From UHGV virus genome UHGV-1353888: a DNA stretch of 64,000 nt; one strand, given 5' to 3'. The position numbers and the translations under genes are program-made. This DNA comes from a virus. The notes beneath the pieces are model-generated. The model did not search any database, was not told the DNA's origin, and saw nothing but the letters and a program-made list of their open reading frames with translations. Of this stretch, positions 16,569 to 57,804 are shown piece by piece. Position 1 is the first letter of the stretch. Every line of letters starts with the position of its first letter.

Positions 16569-17843
16569 ATGGCTACTCCTACTAACCCCTCCGAAATCGC
16601 CGCAGGGGATACCATCATGGTAAATATGAGCAACCTCCTGAAAAAGGAGATGTTCAAAACTCAAGTCCGTATTTCTCCCTGGAACAGTCAGATGGTCCAG
16701 CAGATTGCGTGGGAAGACGGCGTGGGTGATACGGGCCGAGTCAACGTGTTCGGTGCGTCCTTCCTCCCGGCTCAGTGGAATCCGGTAACTCTCCAGTCCA
16801 CCTCCTACGACCCTGGTCTCCAGGTGAACGAAGTTGGTTCTACGGAATACTCCTTCTCCCGCGACATCACGATGCTGGCCTCTCAGAAGATTGACGTGAC
16901 TCGTCTCCGTCAGTCCTGGCAAGCTCGTCAACAGGCTGTTGCCATCGCGGAAGGTCTTGCCTCCATGGTGGGTTACAACTGGTCTGTGCGTTACCGCGAC
17001 AACTATTCCTCCTGCGCTACCTACAAGCTGGTGCTGACCGCTAACGGCATTGTTGGCCTGGACGCTATTACGTCCGATATTACCTCCTTCCCGGAAGTCC
17101 AGCCCGAAGCGGCCCTGAACTCCGCGGTCATGGACATGGTTTACAACGATGTTCTCCAATTTGAAGGCGCGTTTGAATCTGCTGATGGTATGACCAATGG
17201 TGCTCCGGTGTTCACGGTTATGGCCTCTCGTAACACGATTGACTTCATTACCCGTGGCTCCGACGTTTCCCATAACGACTGGCGATGGGCTGAGGCAACC
17301 TACGGCGAAAAGTCCTTCCTCATGAACCAGCTTGGTGCAAAGAAGGCTTACAAGAACTTCATGTATGTTCTTGACTCTCTCGCCCCGCGTTACACCTTTG
17401 ATGCCACGAAGCCCGCTGGCCAGAAGTGGATTCGCGTTGAACCCTATATCCTGGTCCCCACCACGAACGGCACCCGTGCTATTCAGAACCCGGCTTACCG
17501 TGACGCTCCCTTCGAAGACACCATCGTGTTCGTGAAGGACGTGTTCAAGTCCATGGTGGTCAACCCGTACACGGGCGATGACCGAGCCACGTTCAATCCG
17601 CAGACCTTCTCCGGTGAACTGGAATGGGTAAACAACCGAGACATGGATAAGAACTACCTTGGCACTCAGGGCCTGTTCATTGCTTCCCTGTCCAATGGTG
17701 TGATGCCCGTCAAGCCCCGTCATGGCGTTGTGATTCGTCACGTTCGCGCCCTGGCTAACGCTGAACTGGTGGACGCTAACGGCAATCCGATTGGCTCCCT
17801 GGCTTCCACGCCCGCTGTTGCTCTGACCGCTAACGGCCTGTAA
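16569..17843 (+). CDS. probable major capsid protein
   Basis: 424 aa. Follows the scaffold candidate. Extreme codon bias produces a 436-aa antisense shadow ORF. A TTGACA-containing untranslated region lies upstream. Confidence 0.6.
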   Translation: MATPTNPSEIAAGDTIMVNMSNLLKKEMFKTQVRISPWNSQMVQQIAWEDGVGDTGRVNVFGASFLPAQWNPVTLQSTSYDPGLQVNEVGSTEYSFSRDITMLASQKIDVTRLRQSWQARQQAVAIAEGLASMVGYNWSVRYRDNYSSCATYKLVLTANGIVGLDAITSDITSFPEVQPEAALNSAVMDMVYNDVLQFEGAFESADGMTNGAPVFTVMASRNTIDFITRGSDVSHNDWRWAEATYGEKSFLMNQLGAKKAYKNFMYVLDSLAPRYTFDATKPAGQKWIRVEPYILVPTTNGTRAIQNPAYRDAPFEDTIVFVKDVFKSMVVNPYTGDDRATFNPQTFSGELEWVNNRDMDKNYLGTQGLFIASLSNGVMPVKPRHGVVIRHVRALANAELVDANGNPIGSLASTPAVALTANGL

Positions 17844-22237: not shown

Positions 22238-22879
22238 ATGTCCGAACTAATTGATGTAATCGAACAAAGTGTAGAAATGTGGACTCCACCCCCTCTGCTT
22301 GAACAGCAACTTGAGTTAGCCGCAAGGGCTGGACGAGTATGTTACCAAAGTGAAGGTAAAACCCCCAAGGAAGAATTTTTACGCCGCATTATTAAGATGG
22401 GACATGAGAGCGTACTTGAACACGCTTCCGTCACTTTCTCTATCATCACGAACAGGGCAGTAACTCACCAGCTTGTTCGCCATCGTATCGGAGTAGCGTA
22501 TAGCCAGGAAAGCCAGCGTTACTGCAACTACCAAGGAAAGCTACAGATTATTCGTCCCGCTGAATACATGGACAAGAATGCCTATATGGATTGGGAATAT
22601 TCCATGAAGACGTGCGCTCAAACCTATAATTGGCTGGTATGCAAGGACAATGAGTTCCGAGTTAAGCCGGAGGTAGCCCGCGGTGTTCTCCCCAACGATA
22701 CCAAAACACAGATTGTCGTGACCTTCAACATCCGTTCACTTCGTCACTTCCTAACTCTCCGTCTGGATACTCATGCCCAGCACGCCATCCGGGACATCGC
22801 CAGTAAAATCTACAAGCTAATAGACTTGCATGGCTTTGGTTATCTGCTCGAAGGAATTAACACCAAGGGATTAATCTAA
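22238..22879 (+). CDS. thyX: flavin-dependent thymidylate synthase ThyX
   Basis: HESVLEHAS and RHRIGVAYSQESQRY signatures. The track start 22184 is a TTG inside the terminator loop, so the ATG at 22238 is preferred. Confidence 0.85.
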   Translation: MSELIDVIEQSVEMWTPPPLLEQQLELAARAGRVCYQSEGKTPKEEFLRRIIKMGHESVLEHASVTFSIITNRAVTHQLVRHRIGVAYSQESQRYCNYQGKLQIIRPAEYMDKNAYMDWEYSMKTCAQTYNWLVCKDNEFRVKPEVARGVLPNDTKTQIVVTFNIRSLRHFLTLRLDTHAQHAIRDIASKIYKLIDLHGFGYLLEGINTKGLI

Positions 22880-23601
22880 TGAAGAAAGAACAACACACAG
22901 TAAAGCTCGTCGCCGAACTACAGAAGGCATACGATTACTTTAATGAACACCTTTTCAAGGACGAACTCCCTGATTGCATCATGGGGTTGTGCAATGCAAA
23001 TAAAAGAACCTTGGGGTATTACCACCGTAGTCAATACCTGACTACGGAAGGAGCTATCAAAGTAGATAAGATTTCCCTAAACCCATCATACTTTGTATCC
23101 CAAGGTGTTAAAAAAGTCATGGGGACTCTCGTCCATGAGATGTGCCACCTTTGGCGTGAACGAATGTGTGACAAGCCATCTCGTGGTGGGTATCATGACC
23201 GTAAGTGGGGAAGCAAGATGAAAGAGGTGGGGTTGTACCCTTCCAATACCGGGGAAGAAGGTGGAAAAGAAACAGGGAATCAGATGACCCACTACATTAT
23301 TGTGGATGGACCATTCGATAAATTCTTCAAGAAGCTTAAGGAAGAGCACAATATAACTCTTCCCTATATTCATAAGACCCAACTGGGGTTTCTAGGAGGA
23401 GTCAACAATCCCATGCTCAAAGAGAATCCTGAACTTCTGGAAGCTATTGAAAGGGAAAATCCTTTTGGAAGCATCTCCAAGAACCGTTCCAACCGGGTCA
23501 AGTACATTTGCCCTGTATGCAACTCCAAAGTATGGGGAAAGAAAGAGCTCTATATTGTATGTGGGGCCTGCAAAGTAACTATGGACCCGGATGATAATTA
23601 G
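22879..23601 (+). CDS. SprT-like zinc metallopeptidase with C-terminal zinc ribbon
   Basis: TLVHEMCHLW (HExxH). CPVCNSKVW...CGACK. TAATG overlap with thyX. Confidence 0.7.
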   Translation: MKKEQHTVKLVAELQKAYDYFNEHLFKDELPDCIMGLCNANKRTLGYYHRSQYLTTEGAIKVDKISLNPSYFVSQGVKKVMGTLVHEMCHLWRERMCDKPSRGGYHDRKWGSKMKEVGLYPSNTGEEGGKETGNQMTHYIIVDGPFDKFFKKLKEEHNITLPYIHKTQLGFLGGVNNPMLKENPELLEAIERENPFGSISKNRSNRVKYICPVCNSKVWGKKELYIVCGACKVTMDPDDN

Positions 23602-23638
23602 CATTGACACGCACATAACCATATACTAAACTACATAG

Positions 23639-24016
23639 ATGGAAAACGAAAATCAAAAGAGCCTTGCCGAAACTCTGTATTACGCCGCTGGCAACACCTC
23701 TCCCTATGATAAAGCAACCTATGAACAACAGCGTCCCTTCATTCATCAAGCTACCTATATTCATGCCCATAAGGATGAAATTGCCGCAGAAGTTCTCGGT
23801 GAAACTATCTCCCGATTTGGAGCCAACAACAAAGTAGTTGAAGTGGTAAAGGGCATTATCATTGCTGGGCTTGGTGTAGCCGCGGCTCTCGGATTACAGG
23901 GTTGCACTACTACCTCTTTTTCCTATGATGCTGATACCGGACTTTTCTCTGTGTATGGCTCTAGCCAGGAAGTAGAACAGACGGATGTTCCTCCGGCTGT
24001 CCAGGAATCCCATTAA
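23639..24016 (+). CDS. hypothetical protein with an internal hydrophobic, lipobox-like segment
   Basis: GIIIAGLGVAAALGLQGC at residues 62-79. Confidence 0.5.
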   Translation: MENENQKSLAETLYYAAGNTSPYDKATYEQQRPFIHQATYIHAHKDEIAAEVLGETISRFGANNKVVEVVKGIIIAGLGVAAALGLQGCTTTSFSYDADTGLFSVYGSSQEVEQTDVPPAVQESH

Positions 24017-24017
24017 C

Positions 24018-25049
24018 ATGTTAGAGGACAAACAACCACTTAGCGAGAGGACGGGGGAAGTTATTCCCCCTCCTCTTCCTGCCCTCCCACCTCTTCCTGA
24101 ATTAAATACAGAGGGGATAAATTGGCCTGGAATTCAATCCCCGTTCTACGGGAATGAAGGAATCCAGACCGAACCCCCTTTTATTGATTCTTACATTCCA
24201 TCCCTCCGTAATAATCCGGGGCATTACTTCCAGGTATTTTATGACCCCGAGGAAGATGGAACATGGCCCCAACTTCGTTTTACTCAGGGACTTATCATTG
24301 ATGGGAACGAAAAATTCACCATAGGTTCTCAGCCATATAGTAGCCCCAGGGGGAACCCTGTAACAGGAAGATCTTCTGGTTCAAACCCTTCCAATAAAAA
24401 AGTTTGGCTAAACGTACTAAGTGACCGAAGTGCTTCTACTGTAAGTCTGGACGAAGACACAAGCTCCGACTATAGCTTTGAGATTGCAAGGATTGATGAC
24501 AACGGAAATATCCAACAGCTTCATGATGGTGCTCTCGTTATTGGCGGTGGCGGTGGTTCTTTCCCATTCCGAGTAACTACCCGCCGCCAGCAGAATCCCG
24601 TCACTCAGGCTTGGGAAACATTTGCTGTAGTAGATAAGGGGGGATTCCGGGATACTAAGAGGACTACTGTTCCGCTCACCCAGTTTGGGACTACGGGGAA
24701 GGTAGAAATACCTATCGTTACTACCGGAACTTTACCTGTCCAACTGGAATGGAATTACACATGGCCCTATGCTCCCATTACGGGCGCAACGGTCGTTGTG
24801 GACGATTCGCCCTGGGATGGCAAAACGGTCGTTACGCCCATTACGAGCGGTACGATAACCGGGAAAAGCAAATGTGTTCTGGCCCTGCTCGAAGTAACCG
24901 CTAACCCGCAAGGTGGATTTGATGCCACTGTTAAATCCCAGCTCGTAACCACGGGCCTCAGAGCGATGTGGTATTCTGCTTACGTGGATGACATCTCTGG
25001 CCAGATGGGACAGTATGCAGAAGCTTCAATAACTAATCCAGATGCCTAG
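24018..25049 (+). CDS. hypothetical structural protein (343 aa)
   Basis: ATG at 24018, 1 nt after the upstream stop. The track's 23985 start overlaps the upstream gene. Confidence 0.5.
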   Translation: MLEDKQPLSERTGEVIPPPLPALPPLPELNTEGINWPGIQSPFYGNEGIQTEPPFIDSYIPSLRNNPGHYFQVFYDPEEDGTWPQLRFTQGLIIDGNEKFTIGSQPYSSPRGNPVTGRSSGSNPSNKKVWLNVLSDRSASTVSLDEDTSSDYSFEIARIDDNGNIQQLHDGALVIGGGGGSFPFRVTTRRQQNPVTQAWETFAVVDKGGFRDTKRTTVPLTQFGTTGKVEIPIVTTGTLPVQLEWNYTWPYAPITGATVVVDDSPWDGKTVVTPITSGTITGKSKCVLALLEVTANPQGGFDATVKSQLVTTGLRAMWYSAYVDDISGQMGQYAEASITNPDA

Positions 25050-25857
25050 TCTATTAACCTTTCCTGAACCCATTGAGGGAAACTCTGGCAATGGGATTCT
25101 TTCCAAATGGTATAATCAGTATGCCTCTCCCCTAACCCCCGACAACTGGCTATGGTATAATACTGGTGGTCCTACGCTTGAAGGAATGCCTACCCCAGGG
25201 GGGATGGCTTGCTCAATTCAGCAAGGAGCCATGTATAGGCCGGGTGTGAGGTGTTCCAACATAGTAGATGCTTGGAAGATATACAACGCTTTGGGGAATA
25301 TTAACACACCTGCTCTCGCCGCATCTACTGGTTCTACAGGATGGAAGACCAATATTAACGCGGAGAAAAGACAAAGAATTTTTAATCCTCGTGTTTGGAG
25401 TGTGTGGAATCCCGGCTCTCCCCAGCACGTCATGGCAGGATACGAAATCCCCACTTGGCCTGTTGGGTTTCCCCCGGGTGTAACAGGGGACCTAGCCGCT
25501 ACTCTTGAATCAGACCAGACAGTCGTGCGCTACAACCTGCTTGGCCCCTGGTACATTGAGAAAGATACAGGTGCAGTATATCTTGATTTTACCATATCCC
25601 TTGGGGGAACCTATGTTCGAAGCATTGGAGGACAACGTCAAACCCTTCTCATTAAGGCCAAGATGGGAAAGACACAATATGTCAGGTCCGGAACAAACCC
25701 ATCTGCCGTAAGGAATATTACATGGAGTACTACCATAGCTGGTATTCCAGTAGATTGCCTCGCTACATATTGGTGTTGGAGCCCTATTACTGTCCCAGTA
25801 CCCTTACTCACTGTTGTTGAGAATTGGTTTAAAGGTATTCAATTCGATTCATTATGA
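25042..25857 (+). CDS. hypothetical protein (271 aa)
   Basis: ATG ORF, 8-nt overlap with the upstream gene. Confidence 0.5.
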   Translation: MPSLLTFPEPIEGNSGNGILSKWYNQYASPLTPDNWLWYNTGGPTLEGMPTPGGMACSIQQGAMYRPGVRCSNIVDAWKIYNALGNINTPALAASTGSTGWKTNINAEKRQRIFNPRVWSVWNPGSPQHVMAGYEIPTWPVGFPPGVTGDLAATLESDQTVVRYNLLGPWYIEKDTGAVYLDFTISLGGTYVRSIGGQRQTLLIKAKMGKTQYVRSGTNPSAVRNITWSTTIAGIPVDCLATYWCWSPITVPVPLLTVVENWFKGIQFDSL

Positions 25858-26585
25858 CACAACCTGCTCTTGTAAATCCAGACGAAACAGATACAGTAAA
25901 ACGCATGGAAACGAAAAGCACCGAGGATTGGCTCGATGGAGACTTCAAAGTATTTGTCCTCGTGGAGTCTTACATAACACCGCTCTACCCCTCAAGGGAC
26001 GTGGACCTGCTCCACCTCAGTATTAACTATCTTAGGAATATTGGTGTAAAGCAGGAGGATATTGTTATTGTTGGGGACGAACCACAAGCCCTCGCATATG
26101 GTGAGCAGTATGGAATGAAGACCTATAATACTTTGGAATATGATAGGACCAAGCGTAATTTGGAACCTATGGAACGAGCCTATGCGAAGCATGGGGAAGG
26201 GAAGAACCTTATTCTCCTCGCTAGGCCTTCCATATGTCCCTACCGGGAACATAACTTTCTTCGTCAGTTCCAGAATGAAGTATTAGCTAATCCGGATAGC
26301 CAGTGCGTCTCCTTCGTGATGGACCCCTATCGTAAGAAAGATACCTACACGGGAGTTATGGGGTTCAATAAGAAGATGTTGAAGGAGTACTCTCTGGACA
26401 ATCTTCTGATGGGAATCATCCCTGAAAGAAATGTATACCATAACCTGTTCTGCTCATACCGTATTATAACCCCTGACCAGCTTGGGAATGAAGATGTCAT
26501 CAGAGCCATGACCAATCACGCCTACAATCTTAACATCTATGAATCTCCAGTACCCCTTAACTATTCTTACAGCATTCCTCTCTAA
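25854..26585 (+). CDS. hypothetical protein (243 aa)
   Basis: ATGA overlap with the upstream gene. Confidence 0.5.
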   Translation: MTQPALVNPDETDTVKRMETKSTEDWLDGDFKVFVLVESYITPLYPSRDVDLLHLSINYLRNIGVKQEDIVIVGDEPQALAYGEQYGMKTYNTLEYDRTKRNLEPMERAYAKHGEGKNLILLARPSICPYREHNFLRQFQNEVLANPDSQCVSFVMDPYRKKDTYTGVMGFNKKMLKEYSLDNLLMGIIPERNVYHNLFCSYRIITPDQLGNEDVIRAMTNHAYNLNIYESPVPLNYSYSIPL

Positions 26586-26698
26586 GGACATATTGGATGT
26601 AGCAGAAAATCTGAGAGAGTATATTCAAAACCAACCCACTAGAAGTTATTCCTATTACCGGGAACAGTGGGAGGAAAGTATCAAACAAAAGGAAAACT

Positions 26699-26929
26699 AT
26701 GAATACTAAAGACCCAACGCGGGAGAAACGGTTCGTACATATCTTGGATGAATTCGTTGAAGTAGACCCCTACATTACTATCCGTTTAAACGTAGGTCCT
26801 CATAAAGGAGAACTAAGATATGTCCCTAATCCAGATTATTTCCATGCTGAATATATCCAGGAGGGTAGGGAATACAAGAAGAGAAAGAAATACTTACCTA
26901 GACAAACCTCTAACCCAAAAACGCTATAA
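26699..26929 (+). CDS. small basic protein, copy 1 (76 aa)
   Basis: MNTKDPTREKRF...KTL. Identical copy 280 bp downstream. Confidence 0.5.
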   Translation: MNTKDPTREKRFVHILDEFVEVDPYITIRLNVGPHKGELRYVPNPDYFHAEYIQEGREYKKRKKYLPRQTSNPKTL

Positions 26930-26978
26930 CCTCTTAGAACTTATTAGAACCATGGAAAAAGAAAACAAAAGGAAAACT

Positions 26979-27209
26979 ATGAATACTAAAGACCCAACGC
27001 GGGAGAAACGGTTCGTACATATCTTGGATGAATTCGTTGAAGTAGACCCCTACATTACTATCCGTTTAAACGTAGGTCCTCATAAAGGAGAACTAAGATA
27101 TGTCCCTAATCCAGATTATTTCCATGCTGAATATATCCAGGAGGGTAGGGAATACAAGAAGAGAAAGAAATACTTACCTAGACAAACCTCTAACCCAAAA
27201 ACGCTATAA
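26979..27209 (+). CDS. small basic protein, copy 2. Fused in frame to the duplicated MEKENKRKT start at 26952
   Basis: Identical to copy 1. 280 is not a multiple of 3, so the two copies sit in different phases. Confidence 0.45.
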   Translation: MNTKDPTREKRFVHILDEFVEVDPYITIRLNVGPHKGELRYVPNPDYFHAEYIQEGREYKKRKKYLPRQTSNPKTL

Positions 27210-27231
27210 CCTCTTAGAACTTATTAGAACC

Positions 27232-27687
27232 ATGGAAAAAGAAAACAAACAATATGTCGAAGCCATCACGAAAGAAATCCGTTATCCCTACGGTCCCGGT
27301 ATCCAGAAACTCGACGACGGGTCGTTCAAAATCACTGTATGTCGTTCTGAATGTAGGGCTGTTGCTAAGGCTGATAACCTTGAAGTGGCTAAGGCCATCC
27401 AAGACAAACTGAAAACTGATTCAGGATATTTCCTTTCTTGCGTATCTAGTATTCTCCACAAGGAGGTTACGAAGATTCGGAACCAGGATATTGAATCCAA
27501 GTCAGCCTCCATTATACGATTGGTCAATGAGATTATGGGACTTGTGGAAGAAGGGAGGATGCTATTTCAACAAGCTGTGTCCCAAGGCATTGAGGGAGAC
27601 GTTCTCACCCGAGCCTATTCGGGGCTTGCTGAGTTATATCCCGGGAATCCGGAAGTACCCCTTCTCCATCTAATCTCTGAGGATTAA
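27232..27687 (+). CDS. hypothetical protein (151 aa)
   Basis: MEKENKQYVEAITKE... The track ORF 27100-27687 extends upstream only through the duplicated segment. Confidence 0.5.
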   Translation: MEKENKQYVEAITKEIRYPYGPGIQKLDDGSFKITVCRSECRAVAKADNLEVAKAIQDKLKTDSGYFLSCVSSILHKEVTKIRNQDIESKSASIIRLVNEIMGLVEEGRMLFQQAVSQGIEGDVLTRAYSGLAELYPGNPEVPLLHLISED

Positions 27688-27724
27688 TCTTGTCATACCG
27701 TACTAAACGTACTACACTTTCGAT

Positions 27725-28201
27725 ATGGACTGGAACAACCTATATTATGATGCAGGACGGAACTCGTGGATTACCCAGCAACAAGCTAGCTGGCCTTCCG
27801 TCTCCGTCCCTCCTCCGGCTGTAGTAGCCGATGCAAGCCTAATCCTTTCTTCCCCGGACGTTACTCAAGCTTTAACCATCACTGTTAAGAATGTTCCTAC
27901 AGGTGGGAGTGTGTCAACCCATGCTGTCTTCGATATAGCCATGGTGAGTAAAAATGGAGAGGTAGTTTATAATAGTCAGAAACCCTTTAAAGTAGATATG
28001 AGCGGAAATACTTATACTGTTTCAGGAGCTTTCTCACTTATTGATTCTTACCCCACTATCATCTCCATTCTTGAAGATTACCCCTACATTGATGTAGACA
28101 TGACCTTAAAGGATACCACCAACTTTAAATTCATAACCTCCCCTGTTCGTGTACGAATCTACAATGAACTCTCTAATGTAAAGAAGCCCTATGGAAACTA
28201 A
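27725..28201 (+). CDS. hypothetical protein (158 aa)
   Basis: ATG ORF. Confidence 0.5.
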   Translation: MDWNNLYYDAGRNSWITQQQASWPSVSVPPPAVVADASLILSSPDVTQALTITVKNVPTGGSVSTHAVFDIAMVSKNGEVVYNSQKPFKVDMSGNTYTVSGAFSLIDSYPTIISILEDYPYIDVDMTLKDTTNFKFITSPVRVRIYNELSNVKKPYGN

Positions 28202-28202
28202 T

Positions 28203-28619
28203 ATGGAAACAGATTTATTTGATACCTATTTCTCTGGAAAGACCCTCAATCTTCGTGCCCTATATGAAGTGAGGAATGCTATTCGGCTTTCCCATTATGG
28301 AACCAAATCGGGATTCCATCACCTCAAGTACGACAAGGTAACGAAGATTGTTGATGATTACCTGGACAAGTATGTTGAGGCCACCATCGGTCTCGATGGG
28401 ACCACTGCGAACTTGGTGTACGAAGACCTGGATACAAACCCATTTGGTACGATAAGTCCGAATAGTACGGAAAGAGCTAAGGAACAATTCGAAAACGCAA
28501 TCACCTTCTTCAAGAAAACTCTGGAAGAACACAGTTCCCACCGTGTCCAGCGAACTATCATTGAGAGCTTTGAAGAGGATATGGAACCATACATTGGTGT
28601 AACTGACCAGTATGTCTAA
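28203..28619 (+). CDS. hypothetical protein
   Basis: ATGGAAAC occurs twice, at 28191 and 28203. 28203 follows the upstream stop and is preferred. Confidence 0.5.
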   Translation: METDLFDTYFSGKTLNLRALYEVRNAIRLSHYGTKSGFHHLKYDKVTKIVDDYLDKYVEATIGLDGTTANLVYEDLDTNPFGTISPNSTERAKEQFENAITFFKKTLEEHSSHRVQRTIIESFEEDMEPYIGVTDQYV

Positions 28620-29115
28620 TATTGTCTATCCCCCTGCTAATGGAATTGGCATCTGCTCCAATACCCCTTCTCTAACTAAAAGCATCTTGAGGCATCCTGT
28701 TCCCCAGCTAACCAAGAAAGCCAACAAGGAAGAGGATGCTTGGTTCTACATGTGGTACTACCGGGAAGGTCTTTACCTTCCTTTCGGCATTGCTCTTGAA
28801 TCCATGAGGATTGGGATGGCCGCAAGGTTTGGTGGCATGGAACCAGGGTGGCTTGTCGTAACCACTGAAAAAGACGAAGATGAAGACGAGCCGGAAGCAT
28901 GGGAAGGAAAGGAAGCTACGGGAGGAAAGGGAGACGACTGGTGTTTCCGCTATATGATTCCCTGTGAGAATCCCCCTGCGGATACTCCAAGCTTCATAAT
29001 CCAGGGCTTGAGGTATATCATCGAAGAGGAATCTGAATTTTTCCCCGACTACAAACACCTCATGGATTTAAAATGGGAGATTGCTGAATGCACTCCCTAC
29101 AACCAAACACAATAA
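28612..29115 (+). CDS. hypothetical acidic protein (167 aa)
   Basis: ATG ORF with an EKDEDEDEPE stretch. Confidence 0.5.
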   Translation: MSNIVYPPANGIGICSNTPSLTKSILRHPVPQLTKKANKEEDAWFYMWYYREGLYLPFGIALESMRIGMAARFGGMEPGWLVVTTEKDEDEDEPEAWEGKEATGGKGDDWCFRYMIPCENPPADTPSFIIQGLRYIIEEESEFFPDYKHLMDLKWEIAECTPYNQTQ

Positions 29116-29919
29116 ATGACCTTATCTGAACTAACAAAGCTTATTCAAAAGCACGTAGGCGTAACTGCTGATGGCATTTACGGGAAGAACACCGCCTCCG
29201 CTGTTATCCAGTCCCTTGGGATTGAGCAGGAGGAGCCCAAGGAAGAAGCTAAGGAATACCCTTCTGCGTATAGTCTTGAGCCAAAAGACATGAAGGATGA
29301 TTGGGAACTACTGACCCAGTGCATGATTCTCAATATCGTCAATTTGGAAGACCCCAAGTGCGTCAACCCGGAGACCATCCGAGTGACCAAGCTCCCTGCG
29401 GCGGACCGCGGTGGAGATTGGGAAGTAGCTGGATTGAGCGATGGGTTTGAGCCGGGTATCGTAAACAACATCAGAAATCTTATCAACAAGGGAAACAAGA
29501 TACAGGCATGGCATGAAATGATTCGGGCCATTGATGGCAAGTCCCTATCCCCCAAAGTGGCTGATGTTATGAGGGCCCTGGATATTCCTGCTATCGAATA
29601 CCGTTGCCGTTCCTTTGGATTTAATGCTGGATTGAGTGCGGCTATTAAGTGCCTACAGCGAGCCCTTGTATTTGTTTCAGGAATATCCATGGTGATTGAT
29701 GGGAAGTGGGGACCGGACACACGTCAGTTCCTTGTCTCGTACACCACCCTGGATTCCGAGAAGAAAAGACTCCTTGCACAATACAATCTTGAAATCCAGA
29801 AATATTATAAGTCTCTCAAGCAATACAAGGATGGGACCTTCGCTAAGGGTTGGACCCGGAGGTGGACAGAAGACGAGAGAGTTGCTAATAAATTTCTTGA
29901 CTTAGGGCCTATTAAATAA
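29116..29919 (+). CDS. protein with two peptidoglycan-binding-like motifs; possible cell-wall hydrolase (endolysin)
   Basis: N-terminal VGVTADGIYGKNTASAVIQSLGI and C-terminal VIDGKWGPDTRQFLV (PG_binding_1-like). Central ~150 aa unassigned. Confidence 0.5.
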   Translation: MTLSELTKLIQKHVGVTADGIYGKNTASAVIQSLGIEQEEPKEEAKEYPSAYSLEPKDMKDDWELLTQCMILNIVNLEDPKCVNPETIRVTKLPAADRGGDWEVAGLSDGFEPGIVNNIRNLINKGNKIQAWHEMIRAIDGKSLSPKVADVMRALDIPAIEYRCRSFGFNAGLSAAIKCLQRALVFVSGISMVIDGKWGPDTRQFLVSYTTLDSEKKRLLAQYNLEIQKYYKSLKQYKDGTFAKGWTRRWTEDERVANKFLDLGPIK

Positions 29920-30016
29920 TATATTGAGGGTAGCCAATTTCCCCTCCTTTCTCTAAAACTATGAGGGCGTACTCTAAACACTGGGTACGCCCTCATTTTG
30001 TTTACTCTTCTATGTT

Positions 30017-35721: not shown

Positions 35722-35763
35722 GACATATTTTCTTCTTGCAATAGTAAATATTCATGGTACAAA

Positions 35764-35801
35764 AAGGGCACAGTCTTTACGGGCTGTGTCCTTTTCTCTT
35801 T
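35764..35801 (+). terminator. rho-independent terminator: 12-bp stem with two G-U pairs, TTTAC loop, TTCTCTTT tail
   Basis: AAGGGCACAGTC TTTAC GGGCTGTGTCCTT. Confidence 0.5.
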
Positions 35802-35837
35802 ACAAGAGAGGGATTAACCAACATACTATACGCATCT

Positions 35838-38800
35838 ATGCCAAATGACACTAACCAAGAACCCTTGACTTATAGGAGTTTCGGACCCAAGAATCCGCAA
35901 ACTGAATACTATAAGCAGTTGAGGCGAGAACAAAGCCAGACTAGATGGCAGGAAGGAAGACAGGAGAGAGCGCAGGAAGCCCAGCAGACTCCTCTTTCGG
36001 AGGAAGCCAAGTTTCTTGATACACTCAACAAGATCTTCAAACAGGAAGAGGAGGCCAGCTATACTCAGGAACAGCGAGCCTATACTCAGGAACAAAGGGC
36101 TATCTCTGCTGAGGATAGAGGAATCCGTAAGAAAGAAAAGGAGGATTCCAAGAAAGAGAAACAGGCTTCGAAGCGAGACAAGCAAATCAGAGACTGGCTT
36201 TCTGGTATCAATACCCGTACACCTGGAAAGTCTTTGGGCTTTTCTACAGAGGCGGAGTATGAAGACTACCTCACCAAAACTAAGCCTGAAACCCTCGTAG
36301 ACATTACCAAGTTCAAGGCCAACGACCCCGAAGAAATCAGGCGCGCCCGCTCTGCTGTTGAAGAGATGGGAGCCTCCCTTGTTCTTAGTGGGGAACATCC
36401 TCAAGTGGCCGAAGGTTCTTTCCGTAGTCTGGAACCGCAGGATAAAGCCAACAGGCTTCTTTCCAAATCCAAGTACGGACTCACCAAAACCGAAGATGGT
36501 TCTTATGTGGTAGACGAACGCTTCCTTGCTAGAGTTAATGACCCCTCCACCGCTGGCATGAGGAACGAGAATATCGCTCGTGCCATTGTAAACAATCTTA
36601 AATCCATTATTTCCAAGGAAGATGAAAGAGGCCGCAGTGATTACCTTATCCCCGACGTTGAAGAAGTTACCAACCTCGTCAGAAACGCACGAGCAAAGAA
36701 CAGGGAAACCTACCAAGAGTACGAAAAAATCAGGGAGAGATTCGCAGTACCAAAGGGTGAAGAAGAACAAAAGGCTGTAGCCCCTGAAAAGGTGGGGGAG
36801 CAAAATGGTGGAGACTCTTCTAGGACTCAACCTACTCTGGTGCAACATGTGCTGAGTGAGGTTGACAGGTTCTTCACCGTCAACCCGGAAGCTATGGAGT
36901 ACCTCAACACTCTTGGTGCCAAGACGGATGAGGAAATTCCCGGAGCTATCGAAGACCAAAAGTTTAGAGAGCAAGCCCGTAGGGGTATTGAACTCAAGGA
37001 CCAACTGGCTCGTGCTATCTCCGAAGCCAACCCCGCCATCGACCTGAGAACCGTTCGAAATGAACTAGACGACGATGCGCTCCTGTACAGGGAAGCGGTC
37101 AGCCAGTTCTATGGTGGAGAGATTCCCGAAGAAGTTTCCTCTGCTATCCTCAATCGAACCACACAACTCGCCCAGCAGAGGCAAGCCCTTGTGGCCAGCG
37201 ACTATGCCAAGGCCGAGAAGGATGCTATCGCTGAACACCTCAAGTCTCTTGGCTTGGATGAAGGGGTAGCCCTTAGCATGGGTATATCTGGATTAACCAA
37301 TCGCCATATCGCTGAGAGTGATACGGGGATGGGTACGATGCGTAGTGCCGTGAACGAAGCACTTCAACAGTATCAGTCAGGTGCGGGACAGCTTGCCGCA
37401 TCCATGAGCTTCGGTGAACAGAAAGGCTATCGAGACCCCCTCTCCCACATGCAGTGGGTGAACATCGGGGATGGCAAGATGGCTTATGCTTTCGTTGACC
37501 CCGGCACAAATGAACGTGTCGGGAATGGGTTCATTGTAGACTTTGGTAACGTAGACCAGCAAGCCAAGGCTCTTGGTGTTAGTAGGGAAGCCTACCTTGA
37601 CAACCTCGCTCTTCCCTTCAAGATGGGCAACCTGAACGCAACGGACGAAGCGAACTCCTTGTTCGCTTGGGACAAGTTGAACGGTAAGCTCGTTGAGAAC
37701 GCTACGGCGGAAAGCACAGGGGGTCTTGCCTACTACGACAATGACCTTATTGAACGAAGTGTCCTTCGTGCAGTTGAAGCTGGGGCCCCTGCTGAGGTGG
37801 TAGATAAGTACCGGGAGAACCTTCTCCAACTCCAGAAGCAGAATGCCAAGGATATGATTGACCAGATGCTCGGGCAGTATGAAGCTGTAGCTAATCTTGT
37901 GGCTTCTGATAGCAAGACTCTGGACACTCTGTTCCCCGGAATCCGTCTCGCAATGAAGGCAATGCACAATGACTTCCGGGATTACTATGCAGAGAACAAG
38001 GGAAAGATGACCAACGAGGAAATCATTTCTTCCTTCCTTGCTGACGAGCAGAACCGACAGGGCTTCCTTGCCATCACTATGGCGGGAGCTAAGACCGTAG
38101 CCCGTTACAAGGCCGCGGCTATTGGTGCTTCCCAGTTCGTGAGTGAAGGCTCTCGTATCATAGGCCTTGGAACCGGAGACCCCGCTAAGTACAACAACAT
38201 GTGGGAGAACCTTCACAAGGAGGAGCAGGCCATTAACACCATCACTACCCGTGCTGGTGGGGTTGCTGAATGGGGTGCTGAAATTGGGAACGTCCTGTTG
38301 CAGACTGCAGAGACCACAACCACTGGTGGTATCGGTGGGGTTAGCGGAAGAGTTGGTACTATGACTGGTAGGCTTGCCAAATTATTTGGTGAAGCTGTTG
38401 CCCTCAAGGCCGCTACTCCCGGAACCATGCGTCTCGGTCAGGTAATCACGAAGCTCGGTGGCGGGGTTGAACGTCTGGTCTCCGGACCCGGCAAGTCCGC
38501 CCTCACTCAGGCTTCCTCCCGTGGTTCCAGTCTGGCTATCTCTGCCAAGCTCTTCACGGATGCCGCGGCTCCTACCTTCGGGGAAGTGTCCAACGCAACC
38601 TACAATGAAGAGATGGCACGGCTCGCCAAGGACCCGGAAACATCGGGTCTTTCCGAAGCCATCCGTATGGAGATGGCACAGAACGTCGCCACCACCAAGG
38701 GAAGTATTGCGGGTATCGGATATGGTATCTTCTCTACTATCCTCAACAACCGCGCTGGTTTCAACCGCATGATTCGTAAGGCCACGGGTGCTACCACCAA

Positions 38801-41800
38801 GGCCCCCGGTGTTTTCGGAAAGCTGGAAAGCTCTCTTGAAGGACCCGGCATCTTCAACCTCAAGGGTCTTCCTGGGAAGGAAAAGGCTATCTCCATTGCT
38901 AAACAAGTTGGTCGTCTCTCCGCCTCCGCCGTTGAAGGTGGCACGGAAGAACTGGCTGATGAAGCTTTGCAGTGGGCATGGCAGACCCTTACTCAGCATG
39001 GAGAAATCCGTGAAGAAGATATTGCCAGCGAGCGGGATGTATGGAATGCCGCCAGCAAGATTTTCATCCTCGGTGCAATCGGGGGTGAAGTCGGCCACGG
39101 GATTCAGGCCATGACTGCCCTGCCTCCGGAAGCTTCCAACCGAAGAGACCAAGCCATCCAGGCTCAGACTCTCTACGGAGAAGCCATGAGGAATGCCCTG
39201 GATAGCGACGTGGAAGGTGCCAACACTACTCTGATTGAAGCATTGAAGGAAGGTCTTGACAAGAGTTCTGCCCTTGCTGATGCCGCCATCACGAGTAAGG
39301 AAGCCGCCATGTCGGTCGCCCGTAACGGGAACATCCAAGCTGACGAGAATGTCATCAACGAATGGTCCTCCATGATTAGCCAGTTGCCGGACGGCACTAG
39401 TGTTCAACTCAATAACTTCTCTGCTGAATACAGCAGGTTGAATAGGATTGGGGATGAAGCAGGTGCGGCTTCCCTGCATCAGGCTTTTGTTGAGGACATC
39501 GCGGCGAGCGATACCCTTACGGACACCCAGCGTCAGATTGCGGGGGAACTTATCCTACAGCTTACGCAGGGTACTCCCACCGCTGAGTTCGTGGAAGATG
39601 TTTCTACTCAGGTAGTTCTTCCAGAAGGCATTGAAGAGTTGGCCGCAGTTGAAGTAGAAGAAGCCCCCGCCCCGGTAACGGAAGAACTGAAGCCAGAGGG
39701 AGACCTTGTTGAGCAGGAGGTTGAGGAAGAAGTTGTTCAGATTGGGGAACGCGACTACGGGTATAATGCCCCGAACCCGGTTCCCTTTGTTCAGATGCTT
39801 TCCGATTGGTATACCAGTGAGACTCCCATTACCCCTGAGATTCGTGGGGAAATGAACGCCCTGCTTACTGACCTTGAGCTTGAAGACCCGGACATCTATG
39901 ACTTCATCACTGATGGTAAGGAAGATGTGGACCGTGCCACGGTTCGCCGACTTCTCACCGTGGCTAACATGACGGGACCCGATGGCCCCCTCGCTGTTGA
40001 TATGAAGGGGAACACTGAAATTCAGAAGGGGAATGCCCTGCTGACGGACAAGACGGTATGGAGCAAGTATGACAAGGATGTCGAGATACAGGATTCCAAC
40101 TGGGCCGCAGATGTGTTTAATATGGTGGGCGAAGGAATGCAACCTATTCAAAACGTGCTCGACGATGTTCTCAATACTGTTCAGGATGAAAGAACCCGGA
40201 ACAATATTAAAGACATTGTAGAGTTCCTTGAGGAACGTGGAGTTCCGGTGAGCGTGGCTACCATTCAGGGGGACAGCAACATTGCTGGTCTCACGATGAT
40301 GGACCCGTCCTCTCCAGAACAGCATATCGCTCTGAACTTTAGCGCGAAGAATGTAAAATCCTCCCCTGCTGATGTCCTGCTCCACGAACTAACTCACGTT
40401 CTGGACAACCATCTGAGGGAGACAGACCCCCTGTATGCAGAACGCGTAGCAAGCATCGAAGAAATTGTCCGCTCCAACTGGGCCAACATCCAGAAGGAAG
40501 CGGAACGGGTGGCTCGCACTGCTGTAACTGAGGAGGAGCAGGCTGAGATTGACCAGTTCATTGCTGAGATGGAACAGGCTTTGTTCAATAAGCAGACTGA
40601 GTTCGAGGGTGGACGTGAGTTCCTTCCTAATGTAATTACCAACCCCATCATGGGAGAGGTGATTGCACAAGGCAATCTCCCGTTTGACCAAGCTCTCGAC
40701 CAGTGGGCCTCCCCCAACAACCTTGCTCGAATCTCTCAGATTGGCAGAGGCAAGGTGAGCAGGATTGTTCATAACCTCATTAATGCTGTGTCCTCCATCC
40801 TCAAGGGTGCCCAGGTTGTTGAAGGGAAAGTTAATCCCAACGCCGCGGTTATTCGTGTGGAAGAAGGAACCCTGGCTGACCCGACAAGGATGAAGATTGT
40901 TTCTCCGAAGCTGGCTGAATACAAGCCGGGAGTTGAAGACGAGAACGTATTCATTACGGACCGCGGCGTTGATGCCGCCCTCTTCTCGTCCTCTGAGAAC
41001 TTTGTCGGAGCAGGGAAGAGACTATTCCGGACGGCGAATGTCAAGGGTGGATTCACCGCTGACAAACGTACTGGGAAAAAGGTTAAGGAATTCGCTGGTA
41101 ACTTCCAGACTTACGTTAATGAACTTGTCGCACGAAACGAACGAACCAAGCGATATGTAACTCAGCAAACGAAGGGAATGGAAGACTCCGAACGGGCTAC
41201 CGTCATCAACTCCATCGTGAACTACACGGGCGATTTGGGCAACACGCTCGACCCGAAGGTTACTCGCCGTATCTTTGCGGAGACTAACAACAAGGTCGAA
41301 CAAGCCAGGGTGGCCAGGGAGGCTGAGGTGGACGCGGCGAACAATGAGTACGCCAAGTTCATTGCGGACCGGAGGAAGGCTATCATCCAGGCGGAGGCCA
41401 GGGTGAACGCCCTTGCCGGGACTCAAGCATTGCAGAATGTTGGAGTAGCTATTACCCAAGCTGTTCAGGTAGCTAAGGAAGTCCCCCAGGTGGACGAGAA
41501 GAACCCGATGGCTGTAGCCGCGGCTCGTTTCAGGAAGGCTCAGGAAGAACTCAACCCCGTGATGAAAGAGATTTACAGCACGTTGGACGAGGATGCTAAG
41601 GCCGAAATGAACGAAGCGTATGATAAGACCATGAAGGCCATTGCGGAAGACTTGGCTCAGGACTTCGACAACCCTGCTGAAATCGTACCGGGCCTTCTCA
41701 GTATCGGTGGGCTTCAAAACGTTCCCAGTGTGGACGACTTGTCCGCAATGTTCACTTCGGTCATCAAGGCCAACAGGCTTGGATGGTTGAAGAAGGATGC

Positions 41801-44800
41801 CGATGCTGTGCGTGCCGCCAAGGATATAACCATAGCCCAGCAAGCCCGTAGAGAGCGCATAGCCCAAGCCGAAAAGAACTACCAGACGAAGGTAGGACGA
41901 GGAGGCATGAAGAATGGGGTATGGACTTCTCCTGGAACGGTATGGCTTGAGCGTGATGCGGCATTGACTGCGGAGAAGAACCGGATGGAAACGGTATACG
42001 CCATGAAGAGAAATGAAGCCCGTAAGGAACTTCTCAAATATCCTTTTGGTGCCCGCCTGCTCAATGTGCTGGATGACAACCGAAGAGCTATTGCTACCAT
42101 GGAAGCTAACCTGATGCACCGCCGCGGAGCCATTGGCCTCGGAACAAAGGTGAGGGACTTTACCTACCTTTCCCGAACGTTTGCCGCGGTAGGCAAGGAG
42201 TCCATCAACTTCCGTAAGGCTATGATGGAACTACTGGACAGCAACGGCGAAGTGAAGCCGGAGTTTACCCACCTTGTAGGTATCCTAAACAATGCAATCC
42301 AAAGCTACATGAGAGAAAACATCTCCCGTTACAACCAGGGTATTTCAGAAACCCTCGACAACATGCTTGCTATGAGCAAGGTGGCTGATGAACTTGGTCT
42401 GGACGGTAGTGAATACCTTGGCTTCAAGGGGAAGGACGTATGGAAGAATGTAAGTGAATACCTGACGAAGGACCCGGCCCTGGCTGAGAGTGCTCTGAAC
42501 ACAATCAACAATGGTCACTGGAACGAGATTGCCAAGATGAAGGATGGCTCGGTTGAACTCCGTCTCATTATCAACAAGGCGAGCCAGCTAGATAACCTGC
42601 TCGCCTCTGCTGATGGTGGGGAGAAGAGCCGACTCCGTAGCAAGATGCGTAAGGCGAAGGCAGACCTGATGAACAAGGCGGCGGAAGACTATGTGCTTTC
42701 CAGTATGGGAGTAACCGATACTGACCTCCGCTCCTTCCTCCTCGGTCTAAATTCTCCGGAACAAATCACGGAAGCATTCAAATCAACTCCTTACCTGGAC
42801 TCAAGCGTAATCTCCAACCTGATGGGAACGGACGAAAACCTCCGAACCCGCATCAGCAACACCTTGGATTATGTGAGAAAGTCCACCGCTATTGAAATGC
42901 AGAAGCAGGGGGTAAACCTGACCGCTAACCAGCGGGACATGTCCCTTCTTGCTGATGGTGAAGTAGCGGATGCCCTGATAGCTACCGCTCGGAATGTGTT
43001 CAAGGAGACCCTATCCAAGGAGCGTAACGAAGAAAACATCTTCGCCAATCGTAAGAACCTGATGGATAGTGAACTTCAAATTCTTGGAGTTCGCGGATTC
43101 AGCAATCTCACGGATGCCTTCGGTGTTATTCAAAACACCCTGTCCTCCCAGGGCAGAGCCTATGTCAACCAAGTAATTACGCATGACGTAGCAAGGAGCC
43201 TTGAGAGGCACGGGGTTGTTACCGGGGAGAGGACGAAGGAGAATACTCACCTTCTGGAATTCCAGAACAAGGCCAACCCGCTGAACGGAATGTACGCAGA
43301 AAGGGACATCGCCCTTGTCCTCTACCAAGCCATGCGACCTGACGAAGCAATTATGCGGGGTAAGGAATTTGGGAAGAAGTTACAGAGCCATTGGGGTAAC
43401 AACTGGGGAATGCTGAGAAGCATCGGTGGATTTGTTTCCATGCTGACCCTGGTCCGTACTCCCTCCGCTACCCTCCGTAACATGGCGGGGACCGTGGGGC
43501 AAAGCCTGAACGCAGGTGCTCTCCCGTTTGACAAGGGGGTTATCAAGGGATATGGAGAAGTGTACCAGCTTGCCCAGGACTTCGTTGTTGCGAACATCCT
43601 AAGTTCCGCGGGTTCCGTTGGTGTGAGAGGTGCAGTGAACAGTGAGATTATGGCGAACGCTGAGAAGCGATTCAACCAGTCCATGCAGAGGTATCGTGAC
43701 CTGGGCCTGCTCGACGCGGGCGCGGCGAACTTCATGAAGGAACAGTGGAAGCAGGGGCTTAATGAAATGAGCCAGAAAGAGGGCAGTGAAATCAGCTTGC
43801 CCGACGAGGACGCAATGTTCTCTTCGCTCGTATCGGAACTAGGAGACCGGAGCACTGCAAAGAAAGCGATGGACCTCGCCAAGCGCATTGCGTATGGTAC
43901 GTTCGTTTCGCCTATGAGCGTTGCCGCTTCTGCTTACTCCGTCCCTGACGTTATCGCCAAGATAATCCTCTTCAATGGGGAGAGCCACAAGGTAAGCAAG
44001 GTAGTGAAAGCTGAGCTCGCACAAGCTGAGAAGCTGAGTAGAGCAGGGAAGGAAGACAAGCTGACAAGCTACATGAAGGACGCTTTGGCCGCTAAGAAGG
44101 AGGGGACTCTTACTTCCTACATTGAACGTAGGGCGGCGGACAGGACGAAGAACCTTCTTCCCACGGGTGCAAGAACTCCTGACTGGGTGAATAAGGTAAG
44201 CATCTTTGGGATGCCCTTCTTCTCCTTCATGTACCACACTTGGCAGAGTGTCCCTTACAGCATTGGCTATGGGATGGAAGAACTTCGCGCCGCAAGGTTT
44301 GCAACCAATACGGCAGATAAAGTCTCCCTCTACATGGATGCCACCCAAAAGTTTGGGGGGGCTATCCTGGGCCAGTATGCTATGATGGAACTGATGCGGT
44401 TTGCCCTTCCGATTGTTACTCAAGCAATCATGGGTATGGTCACGGGTGATGACGAAGAAGACAAGATGCAGATGCTCGAAGCAAGTTCGTTTACCCGTTG
44501 GCTTGCACGGAATGCTGGACTCTCCGCGGACTACGACCAGAACGGAGAACTCTTTTTCTGGTTTGACAAGGATAATGAAACCTTCATAGTCCAGGATGGT
44601 CAGTACCTTCTGCCCTATAAGAGCCTTGGTGAAACCCTGGGTGCTATTATCAACCTTGCTGGATTGAATCCTTTCTCTGACAAGAGTGAGGCTAACCAAT
44701 TCGAGGATGACTACACCGCCCAGCTTCTGGATTATGTTCAGAGCACGGCTGGCTCTCCCTCCATGTGGATTCAAATGCTCATTGATATGGGTTCAAAGGA

Positions 44801-49659: not shown

Positions 49660-50019
49660 CTAATCATCATTCAATTCTTTTGTTATGATGTCAATGCTTG
49701 TTTTGCAGTCAGACAATAATACTTTCTTTTCATCAGCCATTTCCTTGGGAACCTGCGTACCCCGGACCTTGGCTTCGAGACTAGTAACCCTGTCGAGTAT
49801 GGAACGAAGGGATTTGATTGCCGCAGGAGTGTCCAGGTTGGCCTTCCACATTTGCTCAGTCTCTGCTATCTTAATGACATAGATGAACAGGTCAGACCGG
49901 AGGGTGTAGAAATACCGGGCTTGGTTGGCTTGGGATATTACTTCTTCAAGATGGTCCGCATGAAGGGGGCCAGAAAGAAGAATGGCTATAGCTGATATTA
50001 GTGGGGTTGGTTTCTTCAT
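49660..50019 (-). CDS. secreted/periplasmic protein (119 aa) with N-terminal signal peptide
   Basis: MKKPTPLISAIAILLSGPLHA. ATGA overlap with the upstream gene. Confidence 0.5.
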   Translation of the reverse strand: MKKPTPLISAIAILLSGPLHADHLEEVISQANQARYFYTLRSDLFIYVIKIAETEQMWKANLDTPAAIKSLRSILDRVTSLEAKVRGTQVPKEMADEKKVLLSDCKTSIDIITKELNDD

Positions 50020-50468
50020 TTTCGGTGTGCTTGTAAAATGGCTAGTTCGTGGGATTCAAAGTATGAGGTATTTACGTGGGAACATATTTCTCCATCAGTG
50101 ATTTCAGTCCATGCCAACTCATAACCGCGGGCCTTGTCGAGAGCTTCTTCCATTGCTTCTTTGTCTTCCCCAAACTCACTGGGTTTATCTATGTATTCCT
50201 TTGAGTTTCGTATTATCTCAATGGCAGTCCATAAGGAATCAGTGATGGTAAAGTAACGAAGTTCCTGGTCGAAATCCATCTTTCCAAATCCGCTATAGAG
50301 AGCAACTACGTAGTTTCCTGGAAGTCCCGCGGCTCTGGTCAACAGGAAAGTAATCTTCGGTTCGCCTGGAATGGGGGCCTCTTCTACTTCCTGCTCCAGG
50401 CTGGGCTTAAACTGAATGTCTAGTTCAATCATCTTTGAGCAGTGGGGACACGGTATTTGATTTGTCAT
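50016..50468 (-). CDS. paralogue-family member with an N-terminal CPHC zinc-ribbon extension
   Basis: KITFLLTR...NYVVALY...FTITDSLWTAIEIIRN aligns to the family core. Confidence 0.5.
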   Translation of the reverse strand: MTNQIPCPHCSKMIELDIQFKPSLEQEVEEAPIPGEPKITFLLTRAAGLPGNYVVALYSGFGKMDFDQELRYFTITDSLWTAIEIIRNSKEYIDKPSEFGEDKEAMEEALDKARGYELAWTEITDGEICSHVNTSYFESHELAILQAHRK

Positions 50469-50827
50469 TGTGCTTCCTCCTTTTGTTTGAGTTCTTCCAG
50501 GAGAACCTCCTCATTGCCCACCTGTATATTTTGAGTGTTCAGGTTGATAATCTTCCTATGCCCATCACCTGTGTAATTTAGTTCAGCCAGATAGATGTCA
50601 TGTTCGAATAATTGCCATGCTCTTTTCCTCTTTTCATAGGTTCCAAAGATGTCACTAGGCCAGTTGCCTACATTCTCTCGGTCTTCAACAAGAGAGATAG
50701 CTTCCTCCAATGTATTCACAACCGTCAGGTATTCTAGTTTAATAATGCGGCCTACCTCTTTGTAGATGACTACACGGAAATAATTACCTGGGGTACGATA
50801 GATTGAAAATGTAAGTTGTGGGTTCAT
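50465..50827 (-). CDS. paralogue-family protein 1 (120 aa)
   Basis: LTFSIYRT..NYFRVVIYKE...VNTLEEAISLVEDR. ATGA coupling on both sides. Confidence 0.6.
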   Translation of the reverse strand: MNPQLTFSIYRTPGNYFRVVIYKEVGRIIKLEYLTVVNTLEEAISLVEDRENVGNWPSDIFGTYEKRKRAWQLFEHDIYLAELNYTGDGHRKIINLNTQNIQVGNEEVLLEELKQKEEAQ

Positions 50828-51183
50828 TTCTTGCTCAGTTCTCTCTTTTTGAATTCCATGAGAAGGTCAAACTCTTTTTCATCCATAAGGTTTACGGCGA
50901 TGTTATAGACTACTCCCCGGCCAGCGTAGATGCAAGCTTCCATGAGAAGTGCCGCGTCATCATTAGGTACATTCTTAAAGAAAATCCATCTGTCTTCATC
51001 ATCATCAAACCCATCGTCTGGTCGTTTCTTGTAGTTATTCCTGTCTTCCGCTACCTGGATAGCTTCCTCCAGTGTATCAACTACTTCAATATGTTTAGTA
51101 AGGAAAACCAGGGTGTCTTCTTTGAAAATACTTACCCTGAACTTGTTCTTTTTGGTTCGGTGAATTGAAAAAGTTAATATCAT
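50824..51183 (-). CDS. paralogue-family protein 2 (119 aa)
   Basis: LTFSIHRT..NKFRVSIFKED...HIEVVDTLEEAIQVAEDR...DGFDDDEDR. Confidence 0.6.
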   Translation of the reverse strand: MILTFSIHRTKKNKFRVSIFKEDTLVFLTKHIEVVDTLEEAIQVAEDRNNYKKRPDDGFDDDEDRWIFFKNVPNDDAALLMEACIYAGRGVVYNIAVNLMDEKEFDLLMEFKKRELSKK

Positions 51184-57644: not shown

Positions 57645-57804
57645 TTTTCTATGTTTTCTATTTTAGTTTGTTGGTTGGTTGCGGGGTTGTGTTCCCCTTA
57701 CGCAATCCTTTATATTATATTAGAGGGGAAACGCAAGGGAAATGTTCATGCCTTGTGTCATACTTAACTGTTAAGGAGTTATGAAAATGTTCCACGTGGA
57801 ACAT
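57645..57804 (-). promoter_or_regulatory. repeat element A: promoter (box 57752-57763, -35 TTGCGT, -10 TATAAA 57709-57714), CTTAACTGTTAAG palindrome, 20-nt palindrome AATGTTCCACGTGGAACATT
   Basis: About 85% identical to elements B, C and D. Confidence 0.5.

Follow-up and report, generated by a model that had tools for sequence, protein, structure and literature searches.

A perfect 280-bp tandem repeat in an operon of small phage genes

We analyzed a 64,000-nucleotide window of the virus genome UHGV-1353888, read here as one strand from 5' to 3' and numbered from its first letter. Its source is an uncultured ~69-kb double-stranded DNA (dsDNA) phage, probably of the human gut. An earlier note on the window, made from the sequence alone, had described a perfect 280-bp tandem duplication with AAACAAA at its junctions, and three analyses (direct sequence read-out, Tandem Repeats Finder, and a repeat search) agree with that description. 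Positions 26683-26962 recur at 26963-27242 with 0 mismatches, head to tail and without a spacer, at a start-to-start spacing of 280. Tandem Repeats Finder reported 26683-27249, with a period of 280, 2.0 copies, 100% matches, 0 indels, and a score of 1134. The match between the copies extends past 280 nt through a third AAACAAA at 27243-27249, giving a total of 2 x 280 + 7 (567 nt). The bases outside the match differ (C26682 versus A26962 and A26970 versus C27250), and therefore the repeat boundaries are exact. In the 64-kb window this is the sole perfect long repeat found by the repeat search. The features of the locus are as follows.

25854-26585, + strand: upstream 243-codon gene, the conserved left flank (open reading frame [ORF] list and relatives)
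26539-26709, + strand: 56-codon gene; ORF present in all relatives, intact in copy 1
26683-26962, + strand: unit copy 1, 100% identical to 26963-27242
26683-26689, + strand: AAACAAA, left site, in the 5' leader of the small ORF and also within the tail of the 56-codon gene
26699-26929, + strand: small gene copy 1, 76 codons (MNTKDPTREKRF...KTL), intact ORF
26952-27209, + strand: chimeric 85-codon ORF; MEKENK from the start of the 151-codon gene plus an RKT leader, in frame with copy 2
26963-27242, + strand: unit copy 2, 100% identical to 26683-26962
26963-26969, + strand: AAACAAA at the new unit-to-unit junction, where a single heptamer is left
26979-27209, + strand: small gene copy 2, the identical 76 codons, intact ORF in another absolute frame than copy 1
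27232-27687, + strand: downstream 151-codon gene, intact; its start and upstream sequence are rebuilt by copy 2; 98-99% identical in relatives
27243-27249, + strand: AAACAAA, right site, codons 4/5-7 of the 151-codon gene

The locus is a tightly packed, co-directional operon in which genes of 243, 56, 76, and 151 codons follow one another in that order. The 56-codon gene, which the earlier note did not mention, shares 47 nt with the end of the 243-codon gene and 11 nt with the start of the 76-codon gene, and the spacer between the 76-codon and 151-codon genes is 22 nt. The left breakpoint of the duplication falls within the final 9 codons of the 56-codon gene, of which the unit holds the last 27 nt. 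Inspection of the sequence showed that the duplication interrupts no gene and that both copies of the small gene keep identical 16-nt leaders. By the same inspection, a deletion reciprocal to the duplication would cost the genome the small gene along with the start of the 151-codon gene.

The earlier note was also right that the repeat creates two identical 76-codon genes in different reading phases, both of them intact, and a chimeric in-frame start. Translation from ATG 26952 runs into copy 2 and gives MEKENKRKT+MNTKD..., a protein of 85 amino acids (aa). Codons 7-9 of the chimeric leader (RKT) derive from the small ORF's own 5' leader. Two details required revision. The unit was said to hold 27 nt of the downstream gene; it holds 11 nt, or 18 nt when the shared heptamer is counted. 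The small ORF was also called basic, but with an isoelectric point of 9.4 and 15 lysines and arginines versus 11 aspartates and glutamates the protein is just mildly basic overall. Its basic residues are grouped in the C-terminal tail.

Related contigs carry the unit once

The earlier note had proposed a comparison with related genomes for single-copy versions. Related contigs of 62-73 kb were available from IMG/VR, ENA, and Logan, and 15 of them, from about a dozen or more independent samples, were compared at the locus. The unit was present once in 15/15 (L001, L003-L008, L010, L011, L013-L017, and L019). In the 11 contigs of the main clade (10 counted by script, plus L013), each end of the unit has an AAACAAA, and the distance between the two is exactly 280 nt. 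In L014-L017 the two heptamers are 263 or 274 nt apart because of deletions in the small gene. The single unit of L013 is 100% identical to that of the window, and in most other relatives the unit is one base away from it, a difference that gives N2K. Therefore, the duplication is derived and younger than the divergence of these strains. The single-copy alleles carry the paired heptamers, and the window has one heptamer left at its unit-to-unit junction, which are the substrate and the product that a microhomology-mediated event requires. The 280-nt heptamer pair of the main clade and the identical unit of L013 thus support the earlier suggestion of a very recent duplication of this kind.

We rejected the idea that the two copies are alleles of two strains assembled in tandem, because the copies are identical and real alleles are 1 to ~60 substitutions apart.

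Exact searches returned little. A 44-mer spanning the junction had 0 exact matches in IMG/VR, the JGI metagenomes, and the GTDB genomes, and a 62-mer internal to the unit matched one IMG/VR relative only. Neither the 85-aa chimera nor a 129-aa ORF at 26820-27209 was present in a collection of 15 billion proteins. Exact look-ups of the window's 76-aa protein and of its 271-aa and 354-aa alleles also returned no record. These window alleles are not on record, and we therefore take the window's own source assembly to be absent from the collections searched.

A contig from an independent assembly ends where the junction predicts

Logan contigs are built on a de Bruijn graph with k=31, in which each 31-mer is unique, singleton k-mers are dropped, and the graph is cleaned in a SPAdes-like manner (PMC12424806). 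If reads contain A26962 followed by 26963-26992, the 30-mer 26683-26712 has two predecessors, and a contig coming from the left flank must stop there. At least 2 reads with the unit-to-unit junction suffice to force such a stop.

Logan contig SRR5677784_668 (L009) behaves in this way. It terminates exactly at 26712, and its final 30 nt coincide with the unit's opening 30 nt. It also carries the window's private CT at 26556-7, which no other relative has, and T at 26704. From 25782 on it matches the window without difference, with 39 differing sites upstream. The chance of an unrelated break at exactly 26712 is of the order of 1e-3 or less. The end of L009 is therefore indirect read-level support for the junction. 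By the same k-mer logic, the junction is absent from those Logan relatives whose contigs continue through the locus without a break. In assemblies whose k-mers are unique, such as Logan, a duplicated allele is not representable in one contig.

The next contig from SRR5677784 begins at 27477. We sought the contigs in between through their predicted partial gene products and found none, but the 69-aa partial product of L012, which served as the positive control, was missing too, so this negative carries no weight.

Comparison of the window with L009-L013 revealed more strain-variable patches, at 23300-25800 and 29000-30000, in the 354-codon and 271-codon genes and in an endolysin-like gene. In these patches SRR5677784 has a non-window allele, yet beside the repeat it has the window's private single-nucleotide variants (SNVs). 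This pattern suggests mosaic recombination among co-circulating strains.

The duplication is probably real

We consider it likely that the repeat is a real duplication carried by an appreciable share of a natural phage population. Its boundaries provide one line of evidence. As computed on this genome, two boundaries placed at random 100-1000 nt apart have a probability of 1.1e-4 of sharing a 7-mer. Boundaries that lie on a microhomology therefore point to recombination or slippage and not to an end-overlap or concatenation artifact. Assembler settings provide another. To our knowledge, neither 280 nor 287 is a k value of any assembler, and we know of no assembler whose k or overlap threshold is anywhere near as low as a 7-nt identity. 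Therefore, the junction probably exists in sequenced molecules. The artifact that the earlier note offered as its alternative is made less probable, but not negligible, by the low chance of such boundaries and by the break of L009 at the predicted 30-mer.

Several observations weigh on the other side. The junction 44-mer and the chimeric proteins are in no public collection searched, and the duplication has been seen directly in one window only. It is known from assembled sequence alone, as 2 copies in an assembly. The break in L009 would look the same if a co-occurring strain had an unseen SNV at 26713, and SRR5677784 is a heterogeneous sample with contig ends at 27477 and 29782 that match no known SNVs. 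If the window was itself built from SRR5677784, then the Logan evidence comes from another assembler but from the same library. Finally, any effect of the duplication on expression or fitness is hypothetical.

The strongest competing explanation, which we regard as unlikely, is that the junction came from a rare in vitro chimera (a template switch during PCR or multiple displacement amplification) or from a rare variant in a subpopulation and that the assembler walked the resulting loop once, the consensus genome being single copy. It would account for the single copy in all other assemblies of this phage species, for the failure to find the junction in any other collection searched, and for the perfect identity of the copies, which an assembler loop would yield. 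Library chimeras likewise arise at microhomologies. However, the junction k-mers apparently survived the abundance filter and the graph cleaning of an independent k=31 assembly, as judged from the break of L009. A single in vitro chimeric junction is usually much less abundant than the main path, and assemblers discard it as a low-coverage connection. Furthermore, all genes are left intact, which filtering for viability predicts and a random chimera does not. This last argument is limited, because the same two heptamers would give the same intact product with or without such filtering.

It is very improbable that the repeat is an end overlap, a direct terminal repeat (DTR), or a wrap-around, 280 bp of which became internal through untrimmed rotation or concatenation: such a repeat has no reason to begin at one AAACAAA and end right before another (P ~1.1e-4), a 287-nt overlap predicts 2 x 287 = 574 nt instead of the observed 567, the unit lies inside an overlapping co-directional operon and cuts two coding sequences, the contig ends of the relatives map elsewhere, and a collapsed DTR makes no graph branch, so that the stop of L009 at 26712 would be left unexplained. 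What speaks for it is that the complete relatives (68.8-72.9 kb) look circularly assembled with ends at differing places and that many phages have terminal repeats of a few hundred bp. In linear phages like T7, SP6, and N4, short DTRs of this length are exact, and a permuted record may show one as a tandem repeat. The short DTR is non-coding in T7-like phages, which makes an operon-internal position unusual. The repeat studied here differs from a DTR in being internal to an operon, in cutting coding sequences, in being bounded by microhomology, and in producing a graph branch in an independent assembly.

Proposed mechanism and known parallels

We propose that the window contains a genuine and very recent microhomology-mediated tandem duplication, which is the probable reading of the evidence above and would place it in a well-known class of events, with no new kind of element involved. 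The single-copy ancestor would have had two AAACAAA heptamers 280 nt apart, one of them 16 nt upstream of the start codon of the small gene and the other in codons 4/5-7 of the next (151-codon) gene. In replicating DNA, the downstream heptamer could have paired with the upstream one by replication slippage, by template switching, or by unequal exchange between sister copies. The product would be unit-AAACAAA-unit, in which the new junction keeps one heptamer.

The nearest precedent is the amplification of tifA in phage T4. T4 escapes toxIN through tandem segmental amplification of dmd-tifA (Srikant, Guegler & Laub 2022, PMC9391042). Microhomologies of 6-10 bp flank the ancestral locus, and one copy is kept per junction (PMC9391042). 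Both cases consist of a head-to-tail repeat in a phage genome bounded by microhomology (6-10 bp in T4 and 7 bp here), and in both the cargo is a small, previously uncharacterized protein (85 aa in T4 and 76 aa here). However, the T4 arrays were selected in the laboratory, have many copies, were documented by coverage and PCR ladders, and came at the cost of compensatory deletions. The repeat described here has two copies, adds 280 bp (~0.4% of the genome), and is known from metagenome-type sequence alone.

Two more distant parallels exist. The "genomic accordion" of poxvirus K3L is alike in that recombination multiplies a small host-interaction gene of a dsDNA virus into identical copies (PMC6115191). 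It differs in having many copies and a demonstrated adaptive role against PKR, whereas the copy number here is 2. Microhomology-mediated tandem duplications (MTDs) in S. pombe also duplicate a segment between two short identical sequences; they are reversible, the long repeat recombining back to one copy, and can be subclonal (bioRxiv 10.1101/2020.03.03.972455). They are unlike the present case in lying in a eukaryotic genome; here a whole gene cassette in a phage is involved. The S. pombe events are reportedly mostly shorter.

Coding frames at the locus and predicted effects of the duplication

Public gene calls mostly give a 195-codon ORF at 27100-27687 (+ strand) instead of the 76-codon gene, and this call was found in at least 14 public contigs. 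The 195-codon ORF is the 151-codon gene over-extended, and in its first 44 codons it runs across the 76-codon gene in a different frame. We rejected it as a real gene because its frame is disrupted in L014-L016 by a 17-nt deletion and by stop codons; the 151-codon gene is still 98-99% identical in these three contigs despite the broken frame. In the frame of the 76-codon gene, 19/36, 20/41, and 29/60 of the substitutions are at third codon positions. The same is true of 13/22 of the L019 substitutions in the 56-codon gene. Five homologues of the small protein, of 65-79 aa, have the invariant core RY.PNPDYFHAEYI in common. Taken together, the third-position bias, the frame disruption, and the shared core indicate that the real genes have 56, 76, and 151 codons. 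The 76- and 151-codon genes assumed in the earlier note are thereby upheld, by the disrupted frame in L014-L016 and the third-position bias. The miscall also explains why the protein collection lacks the window's allele of the 76-aa protein, which L013 nevertheless encodes. Public gene calls at this locus are mostly wrong, with a spurious 195-codon ORF displacing the 76-codon gene.

The arrangement of start and stop codons allows some predictions about translation. Copy 1 of the small gene should still be able to couple to termination of the 56-codon gene via the ATGAATACTAA overlap. Copy 2 would lose this coupling and would gain initiation at ATG 26952. It may be translatable from two initiation sites, giving products of 76 aa and 85 aa. 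The output of this rapidly diversifying, presumably accessory small protein would be expected to be 2- to 3-fold higher, partly as the 85-aa isoform.

The small gene lies in a hypervariable island

Together with its upstream leader, the small gene makes up a hypervariable island that is 72-83% identical among relatives, compared with 96-99% for the flanking genes. In comparisons with L014, L017, and L019 the island spans window positions 26600-27225 (copy-2 coordinates). Among relatives the small gene differs by indels at its N and C termini and by many non-synonymous changes.

Searches for the function of the 76-aa protein found nothing significant in PHROGs, in Pfam (down to E 10), or in a PDB profile search. 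Neither Rfam over 25500-28500 nor a promoter and terminator scan gave anything significant. An exhaustive phmmer search with the protein found two true homologues only, plus weak repeat matches. One of these, at E 3e-4, aligned GPHKGELRYVPNPDY (GPHxGELxFTPNPDY) to Big_9/cadherin-like repeats of P0024. We rejected assignment of the protein to the Big_9 or cadherin-like bacterial Ig domains (PF17963 and PF17892) because there was no Pfam match even at E <= 10, and the repeat match may serve as a lead only. A single-sequence AlphaFold2 model was all-beta with low confidence (pLDDT, the predicted local distance difference test score, of 54) and too poor for a fold search.

A diversity-generating retroelement was rejected as the source of the hypervariability because the window, 64 kb of a genome of ~69 kb, contained no template repeat and the scanned ORFs, which were part of the total, gave no reverse-transcriptase match. 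Small orphan genes that diversify fast, as this one does, are reasonable candidates for host-range or anti-defense functions.

Genome context

Recognizable genes in the window encode a DNA polymerase, a helicase, an exonuclease, a large terminase (TerL), ThyX (by PHROG), and an endolysin-like protein. The ORF at 22879-23601 corresponds to a 240-aa gene of the relatives that has a precomputed SprT-like Pfam tag. The scaffold names of relatives in ENA suggest human-gut cohorts. We searched 50,697 deposited phages by megablast with the locus and by tblastn with TerL and with a 424-aa ORF at 16569-17843, a guessed capsid gene without a family match, and obtained nothing beyond a TerL match of 14% coverage. 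Judging by these searches of deposited phages, the phage appears to have no cultured relative.

Four other features were recorded. A giant ORF of 3284 codons at 35754-45608 (+ strand) has no Pfam or PHROG match and is 3283-3284 aa long in relatives. In length it is reminiscent of the virion RNA polymerases that N4-like and crAss-like phages encode. At 50016-52550 (- strand), seven diverged paralogous genes of ~111-150 aa (mostly ~115 aa) lie head to tail with 4-nt overlaps. Their consensus is MK.TF.IYRT..N.FRV.IFKED...DTLEEAI...PSDGF, with no Pfam match, and the ORF beside them at 49660-50019 aligns poorly. This array is old and diverged, and therefore tandem amplification shaped the lineage earlier as well.

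The other two features are short repeated elements. An intergenic element of ~92 nt has copies that are 92% identical, at 57663-57785, 60123-60214, 59187-59234, and 62580-62627. The partial copies have GGGGTTGTGT(T/C)CCCCTTACGCA in common, and the copies lie between small minus-strand genes. It could be a promoter, a terminator, or another regulatory element. Between 55967 and 61735, five copies of a T-rich motif of ~51 nt (...CATTTTCTTATGTCTTTCTA...) lie at the 5' ends of small minus-strand genes. They are probably conserved start regions or ribosome-binding contexts.

Possible adaptive amplification and significance

If the duplication is real, it may have been selected for a higher dosage of the small protein, a possibility that the earlier note had raised. 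In such a phage "gene accordion," the protein might, for example, counteract a host defense or tune a host interaction. This idea refines the reading of the repeat as a real duplication and does not compete with it; we hold it tentatively, as a possibility well short of an even chance. It gains from the location of the duplicated gene within the hypervariable island, since faster divergence than in the flanks (72-83% versus 96-99% identity) is a pattern typical of arms-race genes. In addition, the unit contains little more than is needed to duplicate this one gene along with its leader. Amplification of a small uncharacterized gene is also just how T4 escapes toxIN (PMC9391042). Tandem duplications are unstable, and one that turns up in an assembly is therefore suggestive of either a recent origin or selection. 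The 76-aa protein, however, has no Pfam, PHROG, or PDB match, there are only two copies, and one genome has the duplication while 15/15 related contigs are without it. Zero divergence also fits a neutral variant that is days to weeks old equally well.

A stronger version of the idea, that this is a wild gene accordion in a human-gut phage and that the 76-aa protein is a host-interaction or counter-defense factor whose dosage rises by tandem amplification, seems to us quite doubtful, and less probable than dosage selection in general. If it were true, then initiation at the in-frame chimeric start would provide a third route of translation or an isoform extended at its N terminus. The locus would also be a wild counterpart of the laboratory amplification of T4 tifA, and the small orphan family would become a candidate anti-defense gene.

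Gene amplifications of this kind are well documented in the laboratory, in T4, lambda, and poxviruses. They are rarely seen in metagenomic genomes because short-read assembly usually collapses or breaks them. If the duplication described here is real, it would capture gene amplification in a wild phage at its first step, with a clean microhomology junction, zero divergence, and single-copy relatives. The locus also draws attention to a small orphan gene that is diversifying far faster than its neighbors.

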